Assembly: GCA_026394935.1 (NCBI GenBank)
Contig: JAPLZR010000081.1
Span: forward strand, 4,178-39,606
Reading direction: 5' to 3'
Length of the DNA: 35,429 nucleotides
Source: Candidatus Woesearchaeota archaeon
GTDB lineage: Archaea > Nanobdellota > Nanobdellia > Woesearchaeales > ARS49
Shown here in pieces: positions 6,718 through 32,469 of this stretch. The first letter of the stretch is position 1; each line of letters begins with the position of its first letter. The translations under genes were made by a program, and so were the position numbers. Below the pieces are notes generated by a model. The model saw only the letters and a program-made list of their open reading frames with translations, was not told where the DNA came from and did not search any database.

Positions 6718-8310
6718 ATGATAAACCACAAAACTGACAAGAACGTATTTTCTTTAGAGCAACGTACAGAGAAATCACTGATAGGAAAAGTATTGAACTT
6801 TCCTAAGAAAGTCTTGGCAACAGCAGGCCTTTTGGTTGCATTGTCAGGTATTAACTGCACAGTTGATCCAACATATACTCGTGGCATCGACCCCTTTGAT
6901 ATTCCCCGTGCAGATAGGCGTACGGCTGTTGATTACAAGTGCAAGAACATCGAATCTCTGAAACAATTGTCTGACGGTATTTTGGAATGCACGAGTTTGG
7001 GTGCTACTATTGGTTCTTATAAGGCTCCGGAAGCTCTTCGCAAGGAGGCAGGCGCTCTTGGCAAGGATGCTCAGGAATTATTCTCTATGTTTGAAAAACA
7101 GAACGACCTTGTTGCAAGGTTGAGTTCTTCAAGAATGGCTTATTTGCTTGTTGACAGTTTTGATAGAAACGTTGATTATGATTTGGGTGTCAAGACTGAC
7201 CCTGCTGAACTTGAAAATGTTAAGAAAGACCTTGCTGCTTTGCAGGAGTCTATTAAGAATTTGGATTTTGAAAAGCGCCAGAAGTTTTTGTCTGCTTTCA
7301 AGCGTGTTAAGTCTAAAGATGAATTTGAACGCATGTTGAAGTTTAACAGGGAAGGTCTCGACGATGTAGACCGTATGTTAAGGGCTACGGCTGATATAGA
7401 GACAATCGAAGGCTATCTCGGTCTTGTGGACAGCGCAAATCACATTAGTGCTGAAATTTTGAAGTCCCAGACCGGTTTTGACCAGTACGGTAAAGCTAAG
7501 GGTGAGGGAAGGTTTGTTTTGGACGAATTGCTCGGCCAGAAAGTTACTGATATTATTACTGAAAAAAGCGTTTTTGCTGATGTTTACAAGGATCCTCAGG
7601 ATCTTGTAGGTAAAAGCTTGAGAAGCGTTTATGAGGAATTGCTTGGCCAGATTGAATTGGAAGCAAGGGAATCAAGCCCTGAAAGCATGCACAGGATTTG
7701 CAACAAGTATCTTGCTGCTGCTTTGAGTATGGCTTGCGAAGCTCATAAGGTCGAGTATTCAGATCCTAAGACAAAGACCAGTGGTCGTTTGATTAGCGAT
7801 GAGCAGTATCAGGCAATCGTAAGGATTATGGTTGATGATGCTCTCTCTGCATTTGAGAAATCTGGAAAACAAGCTCATGATGGCAGCGTCAGTCTTGGTA
7901 AGATTTTGGAATCAATACTTCCGTTGTACAGCTTTGCTGTTCCTTTTGATGTTGGAAGGACTGCTTTGAGCAGGGACCACAAGTCTCCTGAACAAGAAGT
8001 TCCTTCTCTTGCAATGCGCGAGATGCTTGCTTACGGCAACCGCATCAATAATGGTTTTATGACTAGAGATAATTTTGTAGGAAGTGCTCACGGCAGGCGT
8101 GCTGAATTCTATTCTGCTATTGCGTCAAGCCTTGCTCAGGCAGGTGTTGTTGCAGGTAGCGCAGCTTACAATATTGCTGGCATTCATTCAATGTTATACA
8201 CTGCTTTCCCTAAGACATTCCCTCAGTTGGGTCCTGAGAAAACGCAGCATTACAATCCTGTTACGCAGGGCGGAGAAGAAGGAGGTCCTGACATAGGTCC
8301 TAAAAAATGA
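6718..8310 (+). CDS. Membrane-anchored or secreted hypothetical protein, coupled to the giant surface-protein gene
   Basis: The ORF opens at GTG 6706; ATG 6718 fits the promoter position better. An N-terminal hydrophobic segment (VLATAGLLVALSGINC) and a C-terminal hydrophobic stretch are present. Its stop overlaps the next start (ATGA at 8307-8310). Confidence 0.75.
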   Translation: MINHKTDKNVFSLEQRTEKSLIGKVLNFPKKVLATAGLLVALSGINCTVDPTYTRGIDPFDIPRADRRTAVDYKCKNIESLKQLSDGILECTSLGATIGSYKAPEALRKEAGALGKDAQELFSMFEKQNDLVARLSSSRMAYLLVDSFDRNVDYDLGVKTDPAELENVKKDLAALQESIKNLDFEKRQKFLSAFKRVKSKDEFERMLKFNREGLDDVDRMLRATADIETIEGYLGLVDSANHISAEILKSQTGFDQYGKAKGEGRFVLDELLGQKVTDIITEKSVFADVYKDPQDLVGKSLRSVYEELLGQIELEARESSPESMHRICNKYLAAALSMACEAHKVEYSDPKTKTSGRLISDEQYQAIVRIMVDDALSAFEKSGKQAHDGSVSLGKILESILPLYSFAVPFDVGRTALSRDHKSPEQEVPSLAMREMLAYGNRINNGFMTRDNFVGSAHGRRAEFYSAIASSLAQAGVVAGSAAYNIAGIHSMLYTAFPKTFPQLGPEKTQHYNPVTQGGEEGGPDIGPKK

Positions 8311-11300
8311 AAAAGTTACTATTAGCGATTTTGGTATTATTGGCGATTCCAATCGTCAGTGCTTATGTTGATGTTACTTACATTGCTGACCAGGCTAACG
8401 TTAATGCTACGGCTTACAATTGCCTTGATGCAACTTGTGACAGTGTTGGTCCTTTCTCAGGTCAGATTATAAAAGGTCCTTATGCTGCTGATGGCAGGAT
8501 TGTTGTTCGTTATCCTGATGTCAGGAACACTTTTGATTATGCTGTATTTTTTGTAAGCAAGGGATACAGGCCTTATGTAGTTAAAGCCAGTTGGAATACT
8601 GCTGGAGTTCCAGGCGCTGGTGCTCCTGTTTCATCTAATGTTTACTTTACCAAGTACCCGGTTGTTTGCCGTGCTACTGTAAGCGAGCTGAATTTTGTTA
8701 ATGAATTGCAGCCGAACATTCCTTTGGTTGTTAATACTAATGCAAAGCTTGACGCAAGTACTGCAAGCGCTTTCCAGTTTGTTGCTAACAAGGTTGGATT
8801 TATTCCTCCTCAGTTCATGCAGGAATTTTATGGTGCTGATACTATTGTCAAGATTGAAGTTTTGAAGAACAATGTTGTTGTTCACAATCAACAGAGGGAA
8901 TTCAGTGCTGTTAAAGGCAATTCTTTGATTGCTGAAAGCTCTGTTCCTGTAAGCTTTACTTATCTTCCTGCTGAAACAGGAAACTTTTTGGTTCGTGTTA
9001 CTGCACAAATCGTGGATGACCAGTGCGACCGTTATGAAGATTCTAATGCTCAGGGCGCGTTTACTGTTTTGCAGTCTGCTCCTCAGAGCCAGTTCTATAC
9101 TATACTTAACCAGCTGACTGTTAATGATACTTATCCAAGGATTGGTCAGACTGTTTTGGTTTCTTATAACAAGATTACAAACCACGCAGATGGTGTTACA
9201 GGTCCGTATACGCCTGTTCAGACAGATATTGAATACGTTGTCAAGAACGGTGCAACAACTGTTTTCAGCAAAACTGAGACCTTGTTCGCAAACCCGGACT
9301 CTATAGCGCCTGTTACATACTCGTTTGTTTTTACTCCAACAACTGCAGGTGTTTATACTGTTACAGTTAAAGGCAAGGCAAATTCTGCTTTGACTACAAC
9401 TAATGCAGAGATTACTGATGAAGAGAGTTTGCAGTTGAATGTTTTGGGAGATCTTTCCTATAATGTCTATTTTAATGTAAGAAGTTCTGCAGACGGCAAT
9501 GGTATTGGTGCTGCTTCTGTGGCTTTGGGCAGTTTTGAAGCTAAGGCAACAGATGCTCAGGGTCAGGTTGTTTTTGACTCAATTCCTGAGGGAACTTACA
9601 CTTATACTATTAGCGCATCTAACTTTGGTTCAAAGAGGGGCTCTGTTGATGTGACTTCAGACAAAACTATTGCTGTAGTCTTGCATCCTGGTGCTAATGA
9701 ATCAGAAGCTAACATGCCTCCTTGGATGAATTTGCCTGACAGCATTCAGTTCCAGGCAGGTACTTCAAGTTCGTTTAATTATCATACTTATGTTCGTGAT
9801 GAGCAGGATTCTGACAGCGACCTTGTTTTGAGTGTTACTGGCGGAAATTCAACTGTTGAAGTTGTAATTGACCAGCTTTCTGGCTTGGTTACATTCAGCG
9901 CTCCTGCTTCATTTACTGGTCAGGAAACCATATCCTTCATGTTGAAGGATACTCAGGGTGCTACTGCTAGAGATCGTGTTGTTGTTAACGTTCAGTCTTA
10001 TGCTGAAGCTCCTAATAGTTTGGCTTTGGATGAAGCAACAGTTACTATTAATGAAGATTCTACTGCTGTGAGATATTTGAACTTGAGAGACTACGTCTCT
10101 GACGCAGATACTCCTGTTGAGAATCTTGTTTTCAATGTTATTTCAGTCACTCCAAGCTCTCTTGCAACTGCTCGTGTTGAGGACAAGTATTTGTCTGTTT
10201 ACCCGAAGCAGGACCAGAATGGCAATGGCGTGATTAACGTCAGTGTTACAGATGGCAGTGTTATTGCTTATTCAAGCATTGATTTGAGTGTTACTCCTGT
10301 TAACGATGCTCCTGTTGTTATTTCAACTCCAAGCATACACATTAATGAGAGTACTACTTTTGTTTTGAACTTGTCAACTGTCTTTAAGGATGTTGATGAT
10401 GTTTCATTGACTTACACTGTTACTCCGACGTTGAATGTTGGCTTTATGATTGACAATGCAGCTCCAAGTTTGACCATTATGCCTGAATTTAATATTAATG
10501 GTACAAGAACTTTCAATGTTACTGCTACTGACCCTGGAAGGCTTTCAGCAAAGGTTACTGCGCAATTATTCCTTGGCTTTGTTGATGATGCGCCGTTCTT
10601 TAATTCAGTGATTCCAAATATTAATACTTACGAGGAAGTGCCTAACAGCATTGACTTGACTCCTTTCGAGAATGATCCTGAGGAAGGTCCTGGTGCTAAT
10701 GGCAACACTTTGAATTGGAAGATGCAGTTTGCAAACCAGAGCAATATGACTCCGGTTAATGTTTTGAGCAATGCTTTGTTCACTGCAACTCTTAACTCAA
10801 CCACAGATTACTTGCTTGTAGTTCCTAAAGCAAATGCAACTGGTAGTGATAATATTACTTTGTACTTGTTTGACGGCACTGGCAGGAATGCGTCGCAGAA
10901 CATCAGTATTACAATATTGAACGTTAACGATGCTCCTGTATTTGTTAACTTGTCTGACAAGACTGGCGAAGCAGGTATTGTGTTCACCTATCAGGTTAAT
11001 GCGACTGATGTTGATCCGACAAATGATACTTTGACTTTCAGCCTTGTTAATGTGACTCCTGCTCTTTCAGGATTTGCGATTAACAGCTCTGGAATGATTA
11101 ATTTCACTCCGTCAGCTAATGGCTTGTTCAATGTTACTTTGTCTGTCTGCGATAACTTCAATGCGTGCACTAACGGAACTTTCAAGTTGAACTTGAGCGA
11201 TATTTCAGCTCCTGTTGCTGCTAATGAAGTCACTCCTGCAAACCCGAGCATTTACGTTTTCAATGCGAGCTATACTTGGGGTATTAACTGGACTGACAAC

Positions 11301-14045
11301 GTGAATGTTTCAAATGTCACTTTCCAGCTTAGTGGAACTAATTATACTAACGTGACTCAGAACAGTACGTTCTACAATATTACATTGCAGAATCTTGCTG
11401 CTGGCAATTATACTTACAGATGGTTTGCTCGTGATTCAGCTAATAACCTGAACAGCACAAACTCATCTAACTTTACTATTTTGCCTGCTAACAGCTCATT
11501 GAATTTGACTTTGAACGGTACTGCTGGCAACATTTCAGTTGCTCAGAACAGTGTTGTTCCTATTGTTGCAAACTTGACAAGCAATACCGGCAATGTTTCA
11601 TTGTACAGAAATGGTGCTTTGATTGGTAGTGGTGCTTCACCTTTGAGTGTTAACCAGACTTTCAATGCTTCAGGACCGTACAATATAACTGCGACATATG
11701 CAGGAAACCAGAATTACACTGCTGCTTCAACTACATACTTTGTTAATGTTCAGGATACAACTGCGCCTTCATTTGGCTCTCAGTTGGTAAGTCCTTTGTC
11801 GCCTGCTACGTATACTTCATTGTACACGTTTGGCGTTGTTGTTACAGACAATGTTGCTGTTGGCACTGTGAAGCTTGAATTGGACAATTCAACTAATTCA
11901 ACTGCAACACAAGTTGGCAATTCAAGCACTTATCAGGTCAACTTAACATCTTTGACAGTTGGCAACCACACTTACAAATGGTTTGCGAATGATACTTCAA
12001 ATAACTTGAACAGCACTTCAAGCGCTAATTATACAGTTACTCAGGGCACTCCTGTTATTGATTTGTTAATTAACGGTGTTGCTGGAAACGTTACTGCTCA
12101 GGCTGGAAACATATCAATGCTTGCTAACGTTACCAATCCTGCAGGTGGTTTTGTAAACTTGTATGTGAACGGAACTCAGGTAACTAACGGAACGTCTCCG
12201 TTGAATTACAGCAACTTGTTTAACGGTACTGCATCATTTACTATTCCGATTACTGCAATCTTCCCAGGCAACACTAACGTGTCTGCTGGTCAGATTACAA
12301 GGTATTTGACTGTTGTGCCTACTATAGCGATAACAAACATTAGTCCTGCGAGTGGCGCTTCATTTAATTACAGTAATTTCCAGATGAACGTTACTACATC
12401 TGCAGTTACAACCTGCAGTTGGGACTTTAATGACGTTGCTCAGGGTAATATGGGTCATAATTTCACGACTTCAGATGGTTTGAATCATGTTGCAAACATT
12501 ACTGGTTTGACTCTTGGTTCAAAAAATGTTTCTGTTGCGTGCAACAGCCAGAACTCTGCTCAGAATACTGATTTGACGTACAGTGTGCAGAACATATTGG
12601 ACGGAAGCACTTTGGTTGGCACTAACACGATTAACAGCACTATTATGAAGTCTAGCACGATTAATGCCAGCACTCTTTTGAGTGATGTTGGTTTTAGCAA
12701 CACGTTGACAAACGTTACTGCTTCAAACTCAACTATTGACAATTCAGTGTTGACCAACTGTGTCATCAGCAATGCGACTGTTTTGACTATTAATGCTTCA
12801 AACTGCAATTTGGCTAATGGTTTCTATGATCCGAGTGATTTGACTGGAAGCAATATTCAGTCAAGCAATGTAAGGAACAGCAATGTTACTTACAGCACTG
12901 TTTCAAACAGTTCGATAACTGGCAGTAATATTTTCAATTCAACAATATCTGGAAGCACAATTGTAAACAGTACTTTCAGCAACGCTAACGTTACAAACGC
13001 AAACATCACAAACAACGTGATTTACAGTGGTACGATAACTGTTGGCAGTTATCCTCCTTACAATGCATCTCAAAATGGTACTGCGAACTTGTCTCAGATA
13101 GTTCCTGTTGCTCCTGTTGCAAGCTTTACAATAAGCAGCACCAGAACTCCTGGAAGTACTTTGACGTTCACAAGTACAAGCACTGATGCTAATATTCCTG
13201 GTCCTTTGAATGATTCTTTGTTATACAATTGGACTTTCAGTGATAATAGCACTAATACATCTGCAAATGTTTCAAAGACTTATGCAAATATTGGTAGTTA
13301 CAATATAACTTTGACAGTGACTGACAGCTTTAGTCTTTCAAGCAATACTTCACAGACATTTAATATTGCAACAACGCCAACAACGCCTGATGTACAACCA
13401 TCTTCATCTCCAGGCCGCCATGGAGGACCCGGGGGGGGTAGTGGCGGTGTTAGTAGGATAGCTCTTACTGACGCGCCATTGGCTAAAGTCGTGTTCATCG
13501 GTCAGCCTTTGCAGTTTAGCAAGGACACGAAGCCTCTTCAGTTGCCTATGCTTATGCGCAGGGCAGATATGACTGCTGGTACAACTGAGTGGGTTTTGAA
13601 TGGTGTTTTCTACACTATCAAGAAAGGAGAGCACAAGCTCTTTGATTTGAGCAAGGATGGTGTTGCTGATCTTGATTTGGCGATTACTGATGTCAGCAGG
13701 ACTACTGCTAATATTGTGGTTAAGAATGCAGGTGCTCCTGAGGCTGTTGTTGCGCCTTTGTTGCCTTTGTTTAACTTTACTGCAACGCCTAAGGTTACGC
13801 CTAAGGTTGAGCCTGTTGTTCCTGTAGTTCCTATTGTTGAAGAGCCTAAGGCTGACGAGAAGATTGTTCCTGTTCAGGCTGAAGTTAAGGATGGCTTGTT
13901 TACAAGGTTGGGCAGGGCTTTGAAGGACTTGTTCACGTTTGAACTGTCTGCGAAGTCAACTGCAGTGAAGGTCGGCATCGTCGTAGGCGTTGTTGTGATA
14001 GGCCTTTCATCTTATCTCATCTTTGTTAGATGGGAAAGTTTTTAA
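8307..14045 (+). CDS. Giant (1,912 aa) multidomain surface protein, adhesin or S-layer-like
   Basis: Signal peptide MKKLLLAILVLLAIPIVSA. CarboxypepD_reg-like segment (~9459-9685). Cadherin-like repeats marked by VNDAPV, VDDAPF and VNDAPV (~9700-11220). A duplicated two-domain module of about 190 aa that is very rich in N-x-S/T (~11203-12320). Pentapeptide-type repeats (~12600-13040). PKD-like domain (~13110-13370). Gly-rich linker. C-terminal TM anchor VKVGIVVGVVVIGLSSYLIFV. Confidence 0.9.
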   Translation: MKKLLLAILVLLAIPIVSAYVDVTYIADQANVNATAYNCLDATCDSVGPFSGQIIKGPYAADGRIVVRYPDVRNTFDYAVFFVSKGYRPYVVKASWNTAGVPGAGAPVSSNVYFTKYPVVCRATVSELNFVNELQPNIPLVVNTNAKLDASTASAFQFVANKVGFIPPQFMQEFYGADTIVKIEVLKNNVVVHNQQREFSAVKGNSLIAESSVPVSFTYLPAETGNFLVRVTAQIVDDQCDRYEDSNAQGAFTVLQSAPQSQFYTILNQLTVNDTYPRIGQTVLVSYNKITNHADGVTGPYTPVQTDIEYVVKNGATTVFSKTETLFANPDSIAPVTYSFVFTPTTAGVYTVTVKGKANSALTTTNAEITDEESLQLNVLGDLSYNVYFNVRSSADGNGIGAASVALGSFEAKATDAQGQVVFDSIPEGTYTYTISASNFGSKRGSVDVTSDKTIAVVLHPGANESEANMPPWMNLPDSIQFQAGTSSSFNYHTYVRDEQDSDSDLVLSVTGGNSTVEVVIDQLSGLVTFSAPASFTGQETISFMLKDTQGATARDRVVVNVQSYAEAPNSLALDEATVTINEDSTAVRYLNLRDYVSDADTPVENLVFNVISVTPSSLATARVEDKYLSVYPKQDQNGNGVINVSVTDGSVIAYSSIDLSVTPVNDAPVVISTPSIHINESTTFVLNLSTVFKDVDDVSLTYTVTPTLNVGFMIDNAAPSLTIMPEFNINGTRTFNVTATDPGRLSAKVTAQLFLGFVDDAPFFNSVIPNINTYEEVPNSIDLTPFENDPEEGPGANGNTLNWKMQFANQSNMTPVNVLSNALFTATLNSTTDYLLVVPKANATGSDNITLYLFDGTGRNASQNISITILNVNDAPVFVNLSDKTGEAGIVFTYQVNATDVDPTNDTLTFSLVNVTPALSGFAINSSGMINFTPSANGLFNVTLSVCDNFNACTNGTFKLNLSDISAPVAANEVTPANPSIYVFNASYTWGINWTDNVNVSNVTFQLSGTNYTNVTQNSTFYNITLQNLAAGNYTYRWFARDSANNLNSTNSSNFTILPANSSLNLTLNGTAGNISVAQNSVVPIVANLTSNTGNVSLYRNGALIGSGASPLSVNQTFNASGPYNITATYAGNQNYTAASTTYFVNVQDTTAPSFGSQLVSPLSPATYTSLYTFGVVVTDNVAVGTVKLELDNSTNSTATQVGNSSTYQVNLTSLTVGNHTYKWFANDTSNNLNSTSSANYTVTQGTPVIDLLINGVAGNVTAQAGNISMLANVTNPAGGFVNLYVNGTQVTNGTSPLNYSNLFNGTASFTIPITAIFPGNTNVSAGQITRYLTVVPTIAITNISPASGASFNYSNFQMNVTTSAVTTCSWDFNDVAQGNMGHNFTTSDGLNHVANITGLTLGSKNVSVACNSQNSAQNTDLTYSVQNILDGSTLVGTNTINSTIMKSSTINASTLLSDVGFSNTLTNVTASNSTIDNSVLTNCVISNATVLTINASNCNLANGFYDPSDLTGSNIQSSNVRNSNVTYSTVSNSSITGSNIFNSTISGSTIVNSTFSNANVTNANITNNVIYSGTITVGSYPPYNASQNGTANLSQIVPVAPVASFTISSTRTPGSTLTFTSTSTDANIPGPLNDSLLYNWTFSDNSTNTSANVSKTYANIGSYNITLTVTDSFSLSSNTSQTFNIATTPTTPDVQPSSSPGRHGGPGGGSGGVSRIALTDAPLAKVVFIGQPLQFSKDTKPLQLPMLMRRADMTAGTTEWVLNGVFYTIKKGEHKLFDLSKDGVADLDLAITDVSRTTANIVVKNAGAPEAVVAPLLPLFNFTATPKVTPKVEPVVPVVPIVEEPKADEKIVPVQAEVKDGLFTRLGRALKDLFTFELSAKSTAVKVGIVVGVVVIGLSSYLIFVRWESF

Positions 14046-17765: not shown

Positions 17766-18278
17766 ATGGGAATTATGAAAAAGGCCGACAAGGAAACTGA
17801 AGTGTTCAAGCGCGAGCTTGTTAAAAAGGATGCTCAGCTGGCTGACTATACTGATCATTTGAAGCGTTTGCAGGCTGAGTTTGAGAATTATTGCAAGCGT
17901 GTTGAAAAGGAAAGAAAGGATGTTGTAAGTTTTGCTTCAGAAAGGCTTGTTGTCAAGCTTTTGCTTGTCATTGATGATTTTGAGCGTGCGCTTCAACAGC
18001 TTAAGGATGTTCCTGAACAGACTAAGAAGGGTATTGAGATGATTTTCAAGAATTTGCATAAGATGTTGGATGAGGAGCGTGTTGTTCCTATAATTGCTGT
18101 TGGTCAGAAGTTTGATCCTTACAAGCATGAGGTTGTTTTGCAGGTTGAGAGCGACAAGCCTGAAGATGTCATAGTTGAGGAATTGCAGAAGGGTTACATG
18201 ATGAATGGCAAGGTAATTCGTTATGCGAAAGTCAAGATTTCGAAGAATCACAATTTGGAGAGTGGTAAACATGGGTAA
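17766..18278 (+). CDS. grpE: Nucleotide exchange factor GrpE
   Basis: 170 aa. Contains [18 protein letters not shown] and the C-terminal beta-domain pattern. Overlaps dnaK by 8 nt (ATGGGTAA). Confidence 0.9.
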
Positions 18279-20088
18279 AGAAAAAATAATTGGTATAGAT
18301 CTCGGCACATCGAACAGTGCAGCTTCTGTTTTGGAGGCTGGCAGGCCGAAGATTATTCCTTCAGCAGAAGGAGTTTCGTTGTATGGTAAGGCGTTTCCGT
18401 CTTTTGTTGCTTTTACAAAAGATGGGCAGTTGTTGGTTGGCGAACCTGCAAGAAGACAAGCAGTCAGCAACCCGCATGGTACTGTTTACGCTGCTAAACG
18501 TAAGATGGGTTCTAATTTCAAGTACCAAATTTACGGTAAGGAATATACTCCTCAGCAGATTTCTGCGTTTTTGCTGCAGAAAATCAGGAAGGATGCAGAG
18601 GCTTTTATTGGTGAGCCTATCAAGCGGGCTGTTATTACTGTTCCTGCTTATTTTGATGACAATCAAAGGCAGGCTACAAAGGATGCTGGCACTATTGCCG
18701 GTTTGGAAGTTGTCAGGATAATTAATGAGCCGACTGCTGCTTCTTTGTCGTATGGTCTTGACAAGCAGGGTCAAGAGCAGAAAATATTGGTTTTTGACCT
18801 TGGTGGCGGTACTTTGGACGTTACTGTTATGGACTTTTCAGAGGGTGTTTTCGAGGTTGTTTCAACTTCTGGTGATACCCAGCTGGGTGGTACTGATATG
18901 GATAACGTGCTTATCAGCCATATTGTCAAGGAGTTCCAGAAGGATTCTGGAATAGATTTGAACGATGATGCTGTTGCTATGCAGCGTGTTAGAGAGGCTG
19001 CTGAGAAGGCAAAGATTGAGTTAAGCACTGTTCTTGAAACTGACATTAATTTGCCTTTCATTTCTGCGACTAGTGCTGGTCCTAAGCATTTGCAGATGAA
19101 GTTGACAAGGGCTAAATTGGAAGAGCTTATTGACCCTATTGTTAAGAAGTGCAAGAAGAGTGTTGACCAGGCTTTGTCTGATGCCAAGATGGCTGTTAAG
19201 GACTTGGTTAAGGTTATTCTTGTTGGCGGTCCTACAAGGATGCCTATTGTTCAGAAGTATTTGGAGCAATGGTTTGGCAGCAAGGTTGAAAGAAGTATTG
19301 ACCCGATGGAATGTGTTGCTATGGGTGCTGCTATTCAGGCTGGTGTTCTTGCCGGAGAGGTTAAGGACATTTTGCTTTTGGACGTTACTCCTTTGAGTTT
19401 GGGTATTGAGACTTTGGGAGGAGTTTTAACAAAGCTTATCGAAAGGAACACCACGATTCCTGTGAAGCGCAGTCAAGTGTTCAGCACTGCTGCTGACGAT
19501 CAGTCTGCTGTTACTATCAGGGTTTCGCAGGGTGAAAGGGCGATGTTTGCTGATAACAAAATGCTTGGTCAGTTTGATCTTGTTGGCATTCCTTCTGCTC
19601 CGAGGGGTGTTCCTCAGATTGAGGTCGCGTTTGACATTGATGCTAACGGCATCTTGAATGTTTCAGCTAAGGATTTGGGCACTGGTAAGGAGCAGAGTAT
19701 GCGTATTACTGCTCCTAACAAGCTTGATTCTGCTGAGGTTGAGAGGATGCGCAAGCAGGCTGAGGAGTTTGCTGAGACTGATAAGAAGAAAAAGGATGAG
19801 ATTGAGACTGTCAATGAGGCGGATACTATCATCTATACTACTGAGAAGCAGATGAAGGACTTTGAGGGTAAGGTGAGCGAAAAGGAGATAAAGGACGTCA
19901 AGGACAAGATTGATGAGCTGAAGAAGCTTATGGCAGAGAGTCCTCGTGATCCTGCTAAGATTAGGAAGAAGCTTGACGAGTGCAATCAGGTTTTGCACGC
20001 TGCTGCCACTGCCTTGTATCAGAAGGCTGGCAAGGCAAAAGAAGCGAAGGCTGGCAAGGAAGATGTTGTAGACGCTGAGAAGGCGTAA
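18271..20088 (+). CDS. dnaK: Hsp70 chaperone DnaK
   Basis: 605 aa from the ATG at 18271. Contains [31 protein letters not shown] and the [12 protein letters not shown] motifs. Confidence 0.97.
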
Positions 20089-28652: not shown

Positions 28653-29255
28653 ATGAAAACAGATAAACCTGGTGCGAAAATCCTGAAAATACTGCTTAAA
28701 GACTTTACAGTAAAACCCACTATAACAGCCCTGGCCGAGGAACTGGGTATGAGCCGGGTGGGAGTTTGGAAAGTTCTTAAAAAGTTAGAAGCAGAAAAAC
28801 TTGCTGTTCTTTCTCCGATTGGAGCAGGGAAAACAAGCACGTATAGTATAAGTTTAAACTGGGATAATCCTCTCACTGAAAAAAATCTTGCTCTTGCTTT
28901 AACAGAAGACGCCTTAGAAAATCAGAGATGGCGCAGTAATTTTGCAGAACTTGAAAAAAAAGTGGATTTCCTCGTCATTTATGGAAGTATAATTCATTCG
29001 CCGAAAGAAGCCGATGATATTGATATACTGAGTGTTGTTTCTAACAAGAATAAATTTTTGGACATCGATGAATCTATCAGGAAGACCCAAAAAACCCAAA
29101 TCAAGAAGATTCATTCTTTGAGTTTTACACAAGCAGAATTTAAGCAGGAGCTGGAGAAGCCGAATAAGGTGTTTATCGATGCTGTTAAGAAAGGAATAAT
29201 ATTGTTTGGGCAGGAAAAATTTATTGCGTTCATAAGGAGTGTGGCTAAAAGATGA
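28653..29255 (+). CDS. wHTH-fused minimal nucleotidyltransferase (MNT-like)
   Basis: 200 aa. N-terminal wHTH (ITALAEELGMSRVGVWKVLKKLEAEK) followed by an NTase motif, YGSIIHSPKEADDIDIL (GS...DxD). Confidence 0.7.
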   Translation: MKTDKPGAKILKILLKDFTVKPTITALAEELGMSRVGVWKVLKKLEAEKLAVLSPIGAGKTSTYSISLNWDNPLTEKNLALALTEDALENQRWRSNFAELEKKVDFLVIYGSIIHSPKEADDIDILSVVSNKNKFLDIDESIRKTQKTQIKKIHSLSFTQAEFKQELEKPNKVFIDAVKKGIILFGQEKFIAFIRSVAKR

Positions 29256-29788
29256 AGAAAGAAGTCAGGGACTGTTTTGTATTTGCTGCAAAGGATGAGG
29301 AGAAAGGCAGGAAGCATAAAGGCCTTCTTATCACTAAGCCTGACGATAAAATGGCGGAGGAATATATCGCTAAGGCAAAGATAAACTTGCAGCTTTGTGA
29401 TTTGTATAAATCGCAGGGGTATGATTACAAAATTCCTGAAGAGTGGTTTTATACTCTTTATTATTGCGCTCTTGCTATTTTGTCAAAGTTTGGGATTGAA
29501 AGCAGAAGCCAAAAGTGCACTGCCGCTTTTTTGCGGTATGCTAAAGATAGTGGACTAATGGATTATGATGACGAATTTATTGACAGAATAACTGTTTATA
29601 GTGCTAAAGAAGAAAAATCAGATGTAGATGAGAGAGAAACTGCAAGATACGGTTCATCCATAAAAAGCAAGGAAGTTGAAGTTAAATATGAATATATGGC
29701 CGATATTTGTAAAAAAGCAATTTCTCAGGCAGAAGAAATAGTTTTCTCAGATAAAGAATTCAAGGTTCCTGAAGAATTATACGAATAA
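29252..29788 (+). CDS. HEPN-like protein, partner of the MNT gene
   Basis: 178 aa, with an ATGA overlap onto the NTase gene. Helical pattern AEEYIAKAKINLQLCDLYKSQGYD...WFYTLYYCALAILSKFGIESRSQKCTAAFL. The expected R-x4-6-H appears as RSQKCT, lacking His. Confidence 0.55.
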   Translation: MKKEVRDCFVFAAKDEEKGRKHKGLLITKPDDKMAEEYIAKAKINLQLCDLYKSQGYDYKIPEEWFYTLYYCALAILSKFGIESRSQKCTAAFLRYAKDSGLMDYDDEFIDRITVYSAKEEKSDVDERETARYGSSIKSKEVEVKYEYMADICKKAISQAEEIVFSDKEFKVPEELYE

Positions 29789-31172: not shown

Positions 31173-31855
31173 GCTATTCCTAAGTGCTTATGCGTGTCTA
31201 TCGTTTTAAATAATGCCTTTTCGTCATTCCAGGAATAAACTATCCTGTGATCTCCCATTGGGTGGGGTAAATCTGCGTGCCTCCATCCTCTCCACAGGCC
31301 TGTTTTGATTTTCTGTGTGACTCCTGGAACATCAAACCAGCCCTTTGAAACATAAAACAGGATTTTTTCTTCAACTGCAGTTATTCTTTCTTTATATTGT
31401 GAATAAAGATTATCTTTTTCTTTAAGTTTGGCATATTCAGGCGAATATTCAAATGGTGGCAGTATCTGTGATTGAACTGGTGTTTTCAGGAAATCACTCA
31501 TTCTTTCTAATAAAGAGCCAATCACGTCTTTTTTTTCTTTAAAAACACAGGATAGTAATTCTTTCCAGGTTTCAGGATCTTCGGCAAAGGTCTGGTCGGT
31601 TATGTTTAGCTCTTTGTCAGCCAGTAATTTGAACTCTATCAATGCAGTTTGTACTGTCTGCCATGCGTCCTTTATTTGATTTGCACCATCTTCTTCAAGA
31701 CTTTGAATGATGGCAGGAATAATTACCCTAAGTTCATTAAAAATCTTGAATGCAAATTCTAATGTATTTTTTGCTTGTTCAATTTTTCCATCAATTAAAC
31801 GTCCATAAAATTCTTCCAGTGATTCTTTAAGCAAATTCACTTCTTTTACTTTCAT
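31169..31855 (-). CDS. Helical N-terminal domain fused to a RelE/YafQ-like C-terminal domain
   Basis: 228 aa from the ATG at 31855 (the ORF track extends to GTG 31918, but TTTTTATAAAAA sits about 25 nt upstream of 31855). The C-terminus LWRGWRHADLPHPMGDHRIVYSWNDEKALFKTIDTHKHLG follows the RelE/YafQ pattern. Confidence 0.6.
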   Translation of the reverse strand: MKVKEVNLLKESLEEFYGRLIDGKIEQAKNTLEFAFKIFNELRVIIPAIIQSLEEDGANQIKDAWQTVQTALIEFKLLADKELNITDQTFAEDPETWKELLSCVFKEKKDVIGSLLERMSDFLKTPVQSQILPPFEYSPEYAKLKEKDNLYSQYKERITAVEEKILFYVSKGWFDVPGVTQKIKTGLWRGWRHADLPHPMGDHRIVYSWNDEKALFKTIDTHKHLGIA

Positions 31856-31906
31856 ATTCGACGTTTTAGAAGAAGTTTTTATAAAAAACTTGTCATTTTT
31901 CAAACA

Positions 31907-32103
31907 TCGAGAATCCACCAGTCTATGACTGGTGGTTTACTATGTGCAAACCACAATAGGGTGGATTCTCGAGTGTGCTCAAGAACCACCGTGCCGTATC
32001 GCGTCATTATGCAGCATTCGCTTCATGCCACCGGTCACTTGAAAACGAAGTTTTCAAGTTCGTCAGAAACTTTGTTTCTGAGATATTGACCGGTGGTTCT
32101 TGA
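31907..32103. other. Densely palindromic non-coding block (candidate structured RNA or protein-binding/recombination site)
   Basis: 13-bp perfect stem 31907-31919/31960-31972 encloses hairpins 31920-31930 and 31932-31954. 13-bp perfect stem 31979-31991/32091-32103 encloses a 10-bp hairpin (32037-32059, loop GAA) and an 8-bp hairpin (32063-32081, loop TTT). The motif CCACC(A/G)GTC / GAC(T/C)GGTGG recurs. Confidence 0.6.
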
Positions 32104-32116
32104 CAAGCAGCCATAA

Positions 32117-32133
32117 TCGAGCACCATTGCACT
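32117..32133 (+). repeat. Short direct repeat R1, copy b
   Basis: tcgagcaccattgcact is identical to 30519-30535. Confidence 0.5.
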
Positions 32134-32230
32134 AAAAGTTCGTCCTCTTTTCATTCGGAGAGCATAATGGCGATTTTTCGACTACTCTTGGTTGCACTCT
32201 CGTTCCACCCAAATCCGCCTACGGCGTGTA

Positions 32231-32244
32231 CGTTTAATATCTGT
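32231..32244 (+). repeat. Short direct repeat R2, copy b
   Basis: cgtttaatatctgt is identical to 29904-29917. Confidence 0.4.
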
Positions 32245-32310: not shown

Positions 32311-32469
32311 ATGGAAAACGAAATCTGTCCGACCATTGTTAAACTGCTGGACGAGCAGTATGTTGTTTATTTGAAGGAAGTGCCTTCTCGTGTTTTGGCT
32401 GGGGGAAAAGCGCAGTCTACTTGTGTGCGCGCGTTTGTTAGAAAGCTTTACCCGCCTGCGCTTGAGTAG
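32311..32469 (+). CDS. Possible 52-aa protein (below the ORF-track cutoff)
   Basis: MENEICPTIVKLLDEQYVVYLKEVPSRVLAGGKAQSTCVRAFVRKLYPPALE. GGTGGGGGG lies 6 nt upstream and a TATA-like CATAAATATTAAA about 40 nt upstream. The 3' end overlaps the convergent permease gene by 22 nt. Confidence 0.3.
   Translation: MENEICPTIVKLLDEQYVVYLKEVPSRVLAGGKAQSTCVRAFVRKLYPPALE

Follow-up and report, generated by a model that had tools for sequence, protein, structure and literature searches.

IS608 of Helicobacter pylori is a member of the IS200/IS605 family of insertion sequences. Its transposase, TnpA, attaches to imperfect palindromes located subterminally on the top strand and cuts 3' of a flanking TTAC located 19 nt 5' of the left hairpin as well as after a TCAA located 10 nt 3' of the right hairpin, these cleavage sites being recognized through pairing with guide bases immediately 5' of the foot of either hairpin; the element is excised as a single-stranded circle, which is inserted 3' of its target without bases being gained or lost (PMC3201880). 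ISDra2 of Deinococcus radiodurans is inserted 3' of TTGAT (PMC2806898), the IS200/IS605 family has been reported to be more abundant in archaea than any other family of insertion sequences (PMC13343696), and its transposase-free derivatives include the palindrome-associated transposable elements (PATEs), known since 2011 (PMC3119063). Our comparison of a hairpin-rich intergenic block in a 35,429-nt stretch of a Candidatus Woesearchaeota genome (contig JAPLZR010000081.1; 'the window' denotes this whole stretch) with its dispersed relatives makes it very probable that the block, which is 202 bp long and has no transposase gene, derives from an archaeal IS200/IS605 insertion sequence and represents a PATE or, loosely, a miniature inverted-repeat transposable element (MITE).

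Like IS608, ISDra2 and IS200 of Salmonella, the element (i) exhibits subterminal hairpins of similar sequence at both ends, (ii) is preceded by a target of 4–5 nt (TTAC in IS608, TTGAT in ISDra2, TTNAW here) that is not duplicated, (iii) ends 9–10 nt past the foot of the right hairpin, (iv) carries next to the left foot a base complementary to the target, and (v) has a Y1/HUH TnpA as its partner. It differs from IS608 in that the left cleavage point is 11 instead of 19 nt away from the foot and in that tnpA is lacking, and from the family at large by two additions, namely a central segment whose sequence is complementary to either end and a module residing within the loop of the right hairpin. 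The PATEs of Haloquadratum walsbyi and Natronomonas (PMC3119063) are likewise transposase-free and multi-copy, share near-terminal palindromes with IS605, cause no duplication, tend to harbor small foreign repeats inside their palindromes and occur in short terminal-only forms, which are represented here by a copy of 47 bp including its TTCAA flank (L153). As in PATEs, the element is too short to encode a transposase (202 bp, with a longest open reading frame (ORF) of 54 aa), is multi-copy and shares its palindromes with a tnpA-bearing relative. PATEs, however, have haloarchaeal hosts and an IS1341/tnpB-type partner, whereas the present family resides in DPANN-type metagenome-assembled genomes (MAGs) and has an IS200-type, tnpA-only partner. 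Moreover, the definition of PATEs excludes inverted-repeat ends, while the ends of the window element are somewhat alike.

The initial annotation had described positions 31907-32103 as a non-coding block of nested, perfectly paired inverted repeats (Units A and B), and a repeat search of the window recovered every stem listed there: the 13-nt, 100% complementary stem 31907-31919 / 31960-31972, the stem 31979-31991 / 32091-32103, which forms the perfectly matched portion of two paired 22-nt arms, the palindromes 32037-32046 / 32050-32059 (10 nt) and 32063-32070 / 32074-32081 (8 nt), both 100% complementary with loops of 3 nt, and the alternative pairings CCACCAGTC-tat-GACTGGTGG (31915-31935) and CCACCGGTCA with TGACCGGTGG (32028-32037 and 32087-32096). 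The ORFs present there comprise only 41-54 aa, in agreement with a non-coding block. The block itself is therefore as described, but comparison of copies shifts its limits to 31904-32105. The motif CCACC(A/G)GTC, which had been seen to recur in both orientations, occurs four times in the 35-kb window with 0.2 occurrences expected, each time within the block. When folded as single-stranded DNA, the top strand of the block yields z = -7.9 relative to shuffled sequence and a minimum-energy fold that consists of Units A and B, with a 13-bp outer stem around 4-bp and 7-bp hairpins; folded as RNA, it yields z = -6.5 on the plus strand and -7.1 on the minus strand. The alternative pairings arise because one and the same end palindrome is employed three times, at either end and in the centre, and the folds are mutually exclusive because each terminal CCACC segment pairs either with its palindrome partner or with its central complement. 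In order to account for the long-range pairings, the adjacent 135 nt (32106-32240) were considered as a degraded inverted second copy. This idea was rejected: the alignment score is 31 as compared with 24.6 ± 4.6 for shuffles, there is no match to the family profile, and the fold is ordinary (z = -0.55).

A scan of one genome per species with the 17-mer TGACCGGTGGTTCTTGA, which represents the 3' arm of Unit B, revealed at least 119 places, about 97 of which, among the matches listed, are in archaeal-labelled MAGs (Woesearchaeota, Nanoarchaeota/Nanoarchaeia, Aenigmatarchaeota, Altiarchaeota, 'Methanosarcinales' and unclassified archaea). Many of the archaeal matches sit at contig ends, and one Woesearchaeota MAG (UBA12459) has a match on at least 20 contigs. 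The upstream architecture recurs beyond the 17-mer itself, and downstream similarity stops abruptly. A family profile built from 25 copies matched 83 sequences with 93 hits, about 50 of which span the full length, and gave a single match in the window (31899-32105, E = 3.8e-34). What emerges is a dispersed, multi-copy family with MITE-like behaviour, i.e., the common intergenic repeat family which the initial annotation, having itself proposed to look for further copies, had named as an outcome that would refute its reading. A further 22 of the listed 17-mer matches are bacterial-labelled; the 11 readable ones are all located in coding sequence, nine of them in one common protein context, and none of the 22 loci matches the family profile. 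In Verrucomicrobia (L055, L064, L074, L101, L114, L117, L124 and L136), the 17-mer falls into the coding context ...ELTKIDRWFL, a chance coincidence without any other likeness. A limited literature search gave no description of this subfamily. Short and long runs of N lie in or beside copies in UBA MAGs (L042, L097, L130, L159, L123, L139 and L051), which fits either a repeat that breaks or confuses assemblies, or masking.

The limits of the element were derived from alignments of 12 and 42 copies. At the 3' end, conservation ceases after ...GGTTCTTGACA, where the information content falls from 2.0 to less than 0.5 bits right after GACA; the terminal CA is invariant in 42/42 copies though located outside the search pattern, 0.47 bits are left at the following position and about 0 thereafter. 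In the same 42 copies, whose flanks are otherwise unrelated, the 5' flank carries at most 0.2 bits up to a T-rich pair, and the motif TTNAW located 5' of the element (1.2, 1.6, 0.14, 1.8 and 1.1 bits) is followed by an invariant A. None of the 42 copies exhibits a target-site duplication: positions +1 to +5 are variable, and TTNAW is not repeated. The window copy is flanked by TTCAA on the 5' side and AGCAG on the 3' side, and the distances from hairpin foot to element end are 11 nt on the left (31904-31914) and 9 nt on the right (32097-32105). In 42/42 copies, the target ends in a base that is complementary to the one immediately 5' of the foot of the left hairpin (A/T 30, T/A 12), which would be consistent with guide-target pairing. 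The remaining guide/target positions follow no clear rule in these copies, the kinship among which is uncontrolled.

A further view of the left boundary is provided by locus L041, which was found via relatives of the neighbouring 229-aa protein, the contigs of which were fetched. L041 encodes such a relative with 70% identity, and the block is absent. Its sequence aligns with the left flank of the window over 53 nt (score 90 versus 20 ± 3.6 for shuffles); homology runs through TTTTCAA, the palindromic TATA box included, and then ends. Since it includes TTCAA (31899-31903), we assign these bases to the flank and 31904-32105 to the element. The promoter block (31851-31903 in the window, 2548-2600 in L041) exhibits four differences, i.e., three substitutions and one 1-nt gap, and the intergenic region of L041 has no unusual fold. 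This block, with TATA box TTTTTTATAAAAAC, is near-identical although the downstream protein is only 70% identical, and the element sits about 6 nt past the presumed transcription factor B recognition element (BRE) and leaves the promoter block undisturbed. Upstream of the orthologous gene in another relative (L037 5700-5950; GCA_964354285.1), a unit of about 55 nt with palindrome gaagttttaaggaacttc is duplicated across a 100-N gap, which reflects a tandem repeat or else an artefact of assembly.

The link to a transposase is established by L075 (Woesearchaeota RIFOXYB1_FULL_31_16), an autonomous relative in which a left hairpin TTCCACTGGTC-ttt-GACCAGTGG, an ORF of 154 aa, a right hairpin and TTCTTGACA follow each other; the right hairpin CATGCCACCGGTC-ta-TGACCGGTGG is located 14 nt past the stop codon. 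The ORF contains the motifs HVHMLV (HUH) and YIRNQ (catalytic tyrosine), matches Pfam Y1_Tnp with E = 5.6e-21 and passes the NCBIfam IS200/IS605 transposase model (76.6 bits; cut-off 55). It also matches solved TnpA structures, best of all 2xm3 (PDB title 'transposase'; E = 5e-11), which we take to be TnpA of ISDra2. The right palindrome, there a hairpin with a loop of 2-3 nt, is found just past the tnpA stop in L075 and likewise abuts the 3' ends of tnpA in L049, L079 and L160, with L125 carrying the remaining tail of the same sequence. Most copies, that of the window included, have no gene between their ends. A recombinase had been among the binding partners proposed in the initial annotation, and the likely partner is here a Y1/HUH transposase.

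Y1 transposases are also partners of REP sequences (PMC3333891, PMC8266576), and one may ask if the block is a REP/BIME-like (REPIN-like) domesticated repeat that is served by a single-copy RAYT and has host roles such as mRNA stabilization or termination. Both families comprise high-copy, mostly intergenic hairpins dispersed in inverted pairs, and a Y1 HUH enzyme and a hairpin with a guide-like tetranucleotide are common to both (PMC3333891, PMC3479197). However, TnpA of L075 matches the RAYT model NF047646 REP_Tyr_transpos only weakly and fails it (33.2 bits; cut-off 80), in contrast to the IS200 model. Furthermore, its gene lies between a left and a right end, which is the layout of an insertion sequence; the units are much longer (110-210 bp) with defined, asymmetric and polarised ends and a target motif, and tnpA is multi-copy in one MAG, since tnpA ends are found there on three contigs (L079, L125 and L160). 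We consider domestication of this kind very unlikely, though it is the least improbable of the alternatives.

The conservation of structure bears on a second alternative. Using the structure of the window copy, the alignment of 42 copies and 500 shuffles, 88.7% of the alignment cells were found in standard pairs, as compared with 30-46% when partners were slid; 20 pairs are changed on both sides, and the observed value was reached by 0/500 shuffles for four of five measures and by 1/500 for the fifth. In the left palindrome, 97.9% of the cells are paired and 6/9 pairs are changed on both sides, with the variants CCACCAGTC, CCACTCATC, CCACCAATC, CCACTGGTG and CCACCTTCC each having a matching partner. 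In the stem between left terminus and centre, 9/11 pairs are changed on both sides. In the right palindrome 97.6% of the cells are paired, and in TCAAGAA / TTCTTGA, the 3' side of which was set by the search pattern, 99.7%. Hence, between the covariation and strict identity that the initial annotation had distinguished, the stems show covariation. G.T and A.C mismatches are both rare and similarly frequent (8 versus 6 in the left palindrome, 7 versus 7 in the right palindrome, 22 versus 16 in the outer stem). Such near-pure Watson-Crick pairing without strand bias therefore argues for palindromes acting at the level of DNA and not for a one-stranded RNA with G.U pairs, as had been proposed for these hairpins from the window copy.

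A structured noncoding RNA (ncRNA) gene, be it a TnpB/IscB omega-RNA-type scaffold with the 3' flank as guide or a riboswitch-like RNA, would likewise account for a strong predicted fold (on both strands), for covarying conserved structure, and for a sharp 3' limit followed by variable sequence, and the palindromic TATA box is located about 20 nt upstream. Yet G.U pairs are in excess on neither strand, and the TATA box belongs to the neighbouring gene, is kept in L041, which is devoid of the block, and is found next to the window copy, while the sequences upstream of other copies are unrelated. Judged by length and C-terminal sequence alone, none of the upstream same-strand ORFs at the loci examined looks TnpB- or IscB-like, and none of 64 upstream ORFs inspected next to the ends resembles a DDE transposase; two unrelated transposase-like ORFs (L130, L139) are 246-333 nt away from the ends. 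Rfam yields no match for the block at gathering thresholds, which also speaks against the RNA with mutually exclusive folds considered initially, and, in line with the initial annotation, which could not match the block to RNase P, SRP or tRNA, ARAGORN detected no tRNA or tmRNA and a check by eye no signature motifs of signal recognition particle (SRP) RNA or RNase P. With permissive settings, the one noteworthy match is that of the first hairpin to STnc490, which is sub-threshold (22.8 bits with 56 required; E = 0.034). STnc490 is art200, a small RNA opposite the tnpA 5' untranslated region at the left end of IS200 (PMC4513863), and in hindsight the match may be regarded as a correct hint, a weak echo of the IS200 left-end hairpin. 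We thus rate an RNA gene as slightly less probable still than a domesticated repeat. As the ends of transposons mobilized as single strands covary as well, caution is advised when ncRNAs are called from fold energy and covariation alone.

Less probable again is a classical MITE with terminal inverted repeats, mobilized by a cut-and-paste transposase of the DDE type. In favour of it, a small element without a gene is present in many copies, and comparison of 31907-31923 with the reverse complement of 32088-32103 gives about 14/17 identities, the outermost bases being different (ACATCG... versus ...TTGACA). However, the ends are asymmetric, with the TTNAW flank being present only 5' and the invariant GACA only 3', target sites are not duplicated in any of the 42 copies, matching ends were found to enclose no protein other than a Y1/HUH transposase, and a DDE gene adjoins none of the ends among the 64 upstream ORFs. 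The likeness of the ends stems from the use of the same palindrome with similar flanks at both of them.

The initial annotation had also considered a replication origin or initiator site, a plasmid/virus origin or attachment (att) region, and a cruciform site. A blastn search of phage and plasmid collections with the block gave no match; in viral contigs, the stem pattern gave two matches and the right end none. The stem-only pattern CCACCGGTCA...TGACCGGTGG is found in genomes only of high-GC bacteria and in one Halovenus MAG, which we take as chance, and a cruciform regulatory site is not supported. That CCACC(A/G)GTC occurs in both orientations beside an AT-rich stretch can hardly rescue an origin, att site or recombinase/initiator binding array, since the same element is found at dozens of unrelated loci, also within single genomes, no orc1/cdc6, integrase or rep gene is nearby, and cumulative GC skew does not reverse anywhere in the window; the candidate origin (origin recognition box-like repeats plus the AT-rich stretch) was dropped once the repeat proved multi-copy.

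The assignment to transposase-less, PATE/MITE-like IS200/IS605 elements is then based on the dispersed family, the link to tnpA, the lack of a gene, the lack of target duplication, the boundary seen with L041, the covariation and the complementarity to the target base. Several observations weigh against it. First, the right flank cannot be aligned with L041 (34 versus 30 ± 5), so that this locus constitutes, as judged by alignment, a result consistent with the boundary and not a clean empty site. In a metagenome scan for a precise empty site, the predicted donor joint was not matched, and the only match to a window-type left end is a chance one in coding sequence. Second, the window holds a single copy, which lacks a gene, and tblastn of the 35 kb detects no tnpA. 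The left end of L075, the only intact autonomous copy, departs from the non-autonomous consensus beyond the hairpin, and a direct parent was not found among the relatives. Third, an imperfect inverted repeat is common to the two ends (TCGAGAATCCACCAGTC versus TCAAGAA-CCACCGGTC), which is atypical of textbook IS200/IS605 members, and the covariation of the right-hand stems cannot be judged because their 3' sides are fixed by the search.

By analogy with IS608 and ISDra2, a mode of mobilization can be proposed for the gene-less IS200/IS605 derivative, the parts of which are listed in Table 1. The element keeps both subterminal hairpins of the kind that Y1/HUH TnpA recognizes in single-stranded DNA, together with the short segments leading to the putative cleavage points. 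A TnpA dimer provided in trans would bind both hairpins on the single-stranded top strand and would cut 3' of the flanking TTCAA and after ...TTGACA; a single-stranded circle would then be released and re-inserted 3' of another TTNAW without target duplication, provided that the window copy is active. In sequence, the central segment of the window copy nearly equals the reverse complement of the junction that joining of the right to the left end would create, and L075 is devoid of such a segment. Being complementary to both termini, the segment places the two ends next to each other in the folded strand, which might help a gene-less element to use TnpA provided in trans. The small hairpin directly 5' of the right palindrome, for which 73.7% of the cells are paired in a poorly aligned region of the 42 copies, occupies the region of the right guide sequence in the IS608 family.

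Table 1. Parts of the window copy from 5' to 3' (positions in the window).
Feature	Position	Strand	Basis
Target TTCAA, flanking DNA outside the element	31899-31903	+	Family consensus TTNAW (42 copies); homology with L041 ends here
Whole element, non-autonomous (very probably IS200/IS605 family), 202 bp	31904-32105	+	Profile match; ends from the 12- and 42-copy alignments
Left-end terminal segment ACATCGAGAAT, presumed cleavage point to hairpin foot	31904-31914	+	Pairs with 31965-31976
T31914, guide-like base	31914	+	Complementary to last target base, 42/42 copies
Left subterminal palindrome (IP_L), CCACCAGTC-tat-GACTGGTGG	31915-31935	+	97.9% paired; sub-threshold STnc490 match here
Short variable spacer	after IP_L	+	
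Centre-left segment GGTGGATTCTCGAGTGT, reverse complement of left terminus; outer stem of Unit A	31960-31976	+	Covariation
GC between centre-left and centre-right segments	after 31976	+	
Centre-right segment TCAAGAACCACCG, reverse complement of right terminus; outer stem of Unit B	31979-31991	+	Pairing
Small hairpin ATGCAGC-attc-GCTTCAT in a spacer, directly 5' of right palindrome	32009-32026	+	Many copies, partly compensated
Right subterminal palindrome (IP_R), arms CCACCGGTC (32028-32036) and GACCGGTGG (32088-32096), split by the module	32028-32096	+	
Nested two-hairpin module, acttgaaaac-gaa-gttttcaagt and tcagaaac-ttt-gtttctga	32037-32083	+	Located in loop of IP_R
Right-end terminal segment TTCTTGACA, 9 nt, presumed right cleavage site at its end	32097-32105	+	Invariant CA

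The nested two-hairpin module (about 47 nt) is missing in L110, the copy nearest to that of the window, where the sequence is CCACCGGTC-tat-TGACCGGTGG, and its presence or absence also distinguishes otherwise near-identical copies of UBA12459. Similar modules reside elsewhere in other copies, namely in the 3' arm of the left palindrome (L063, L068), in the centre (L086, L156, L052) and in the 5' arm of the right palindrome (L132, L142), and further module-bearing copies are L057, L152, L084, L073 and L158. The modules comprise 47-55 nt and have the same architecture with differing sequences; eight different ones fold as two adjacent hairpins (z = -3.3 to -7.7), and those of the window and L158 have common linkers and fully compensated stems. 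Among the loci examined, modules are seen only inside copies of this element family. Judged by its distribution, the module is a unit separable from the rest of the element. It resembles SMR-A of Haloquadratum (PMC3119063) in being short, transposase-free, devoid of target duplications and located within PATE/IS605-type palindromes. SMR-A, however, is about 110 bp long with prominent inverted terminal repeats, in contrast to the two adjacent hairpins of a module of 47-55 nt. It is tempting to speculate, albeit with more doubt than conviction, that the module is an independent, ultra-small mobile element targeting hairpins and, separately, that the centre pairing with both termini is an adaptation to TnpA acting in trans. 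If true, the former would mean that one parasite is exploited by another, comparable to SMR-A of Haloquadratum but far smaller, and the latter would pre-assemble both ends, which would give a gene-less element a good position in the competition for TnpA.

In order to place the host, DnaK encoded in the window (18223-20088) was compared with DnaK of related MAGs (L163-L171). The closest one is from MAG CAYUHB01 ('Methanosarcinales' binchicken_co119_486) with 96% identity, followed by LFW-252_3 (90%) and by further 'Methanosarcinales', Woesearchaeota and Nanoarchaeia MAGs (85-89%); MAGs labelled as unclassified archaea also fall into the range of 85-90%. The window thus probably stems from a DPANN-type archaeon. 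Because DnaK sequences under these different labels are 85-96% identical to that of the window, the 'Methanosarcinales' labels of the binchicken MAGs are probably wrong, and a transfer between DPANN archaea and Methanosarcinales across phyla was dropped from consideration for this reason. CAYUHB01 contains at least four copies (L110, L096, L158 and L161) which are those most similar to the window copy and have flanks unrelated to it; since they sit at unrelated loci, the subfamily has moved within this lineage.

For annotation, these findings turn a puzzling structured intergenic block into a recognizable copy of a mobile element: the initial observation was a correct one of ordinary mobile DNA, and the biology adds little to what is known. 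The repeat breaks assemblies of DPANN-type archaeal MAGs, and a working definition for masking and counting it there consists of TTNAW, the palindromes CCACYRGTC and the 3' end GGTTCTTGACA. Specialists might find the complementarity between target and foot base, the centre pairing with both termini, and the nested two-hairpin module worth studying.

The window is a stretch of archaeal chromosome with genes for a family-B DNA polymerase, DnaK/DnaJ, a Ser/Thr kinase and an ABC-2 transporter, and the block is located between two diverging genes. On its left, a 229-aa protein without assigned function is encoded on the minus strand (ATG at 31857), the palindromic TATA box (31877-31890) being located about 20 nt upstream of the block; on its right is an ORF of 52 aa on the plus strand (32311-32469). 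The latter is preceded by GGTGGGGGG and overlaps, 3' end with 3' end, the convergent gene for the ABC-2 permease. Exact look-ups of this ORF and of the small ORFs in or beside the block returned no record, and synteny via the ABC permease gave nothing usable. Elsewhere in the window, an ORF of 1912 aa (8307-14045) is preceded by one of 534 aa without Pfam match. Finally, two ORFs overlapping by 4 nt are found at 28653-29788, of which the first exhibits a helix-turn-helix domain and a weak nucleotidyltransferase (Polbeta) match, and the second, with 178 aa, has no Pfam match; the two could constitute an MNT/HEPN-like toxin-antitoxin pair.

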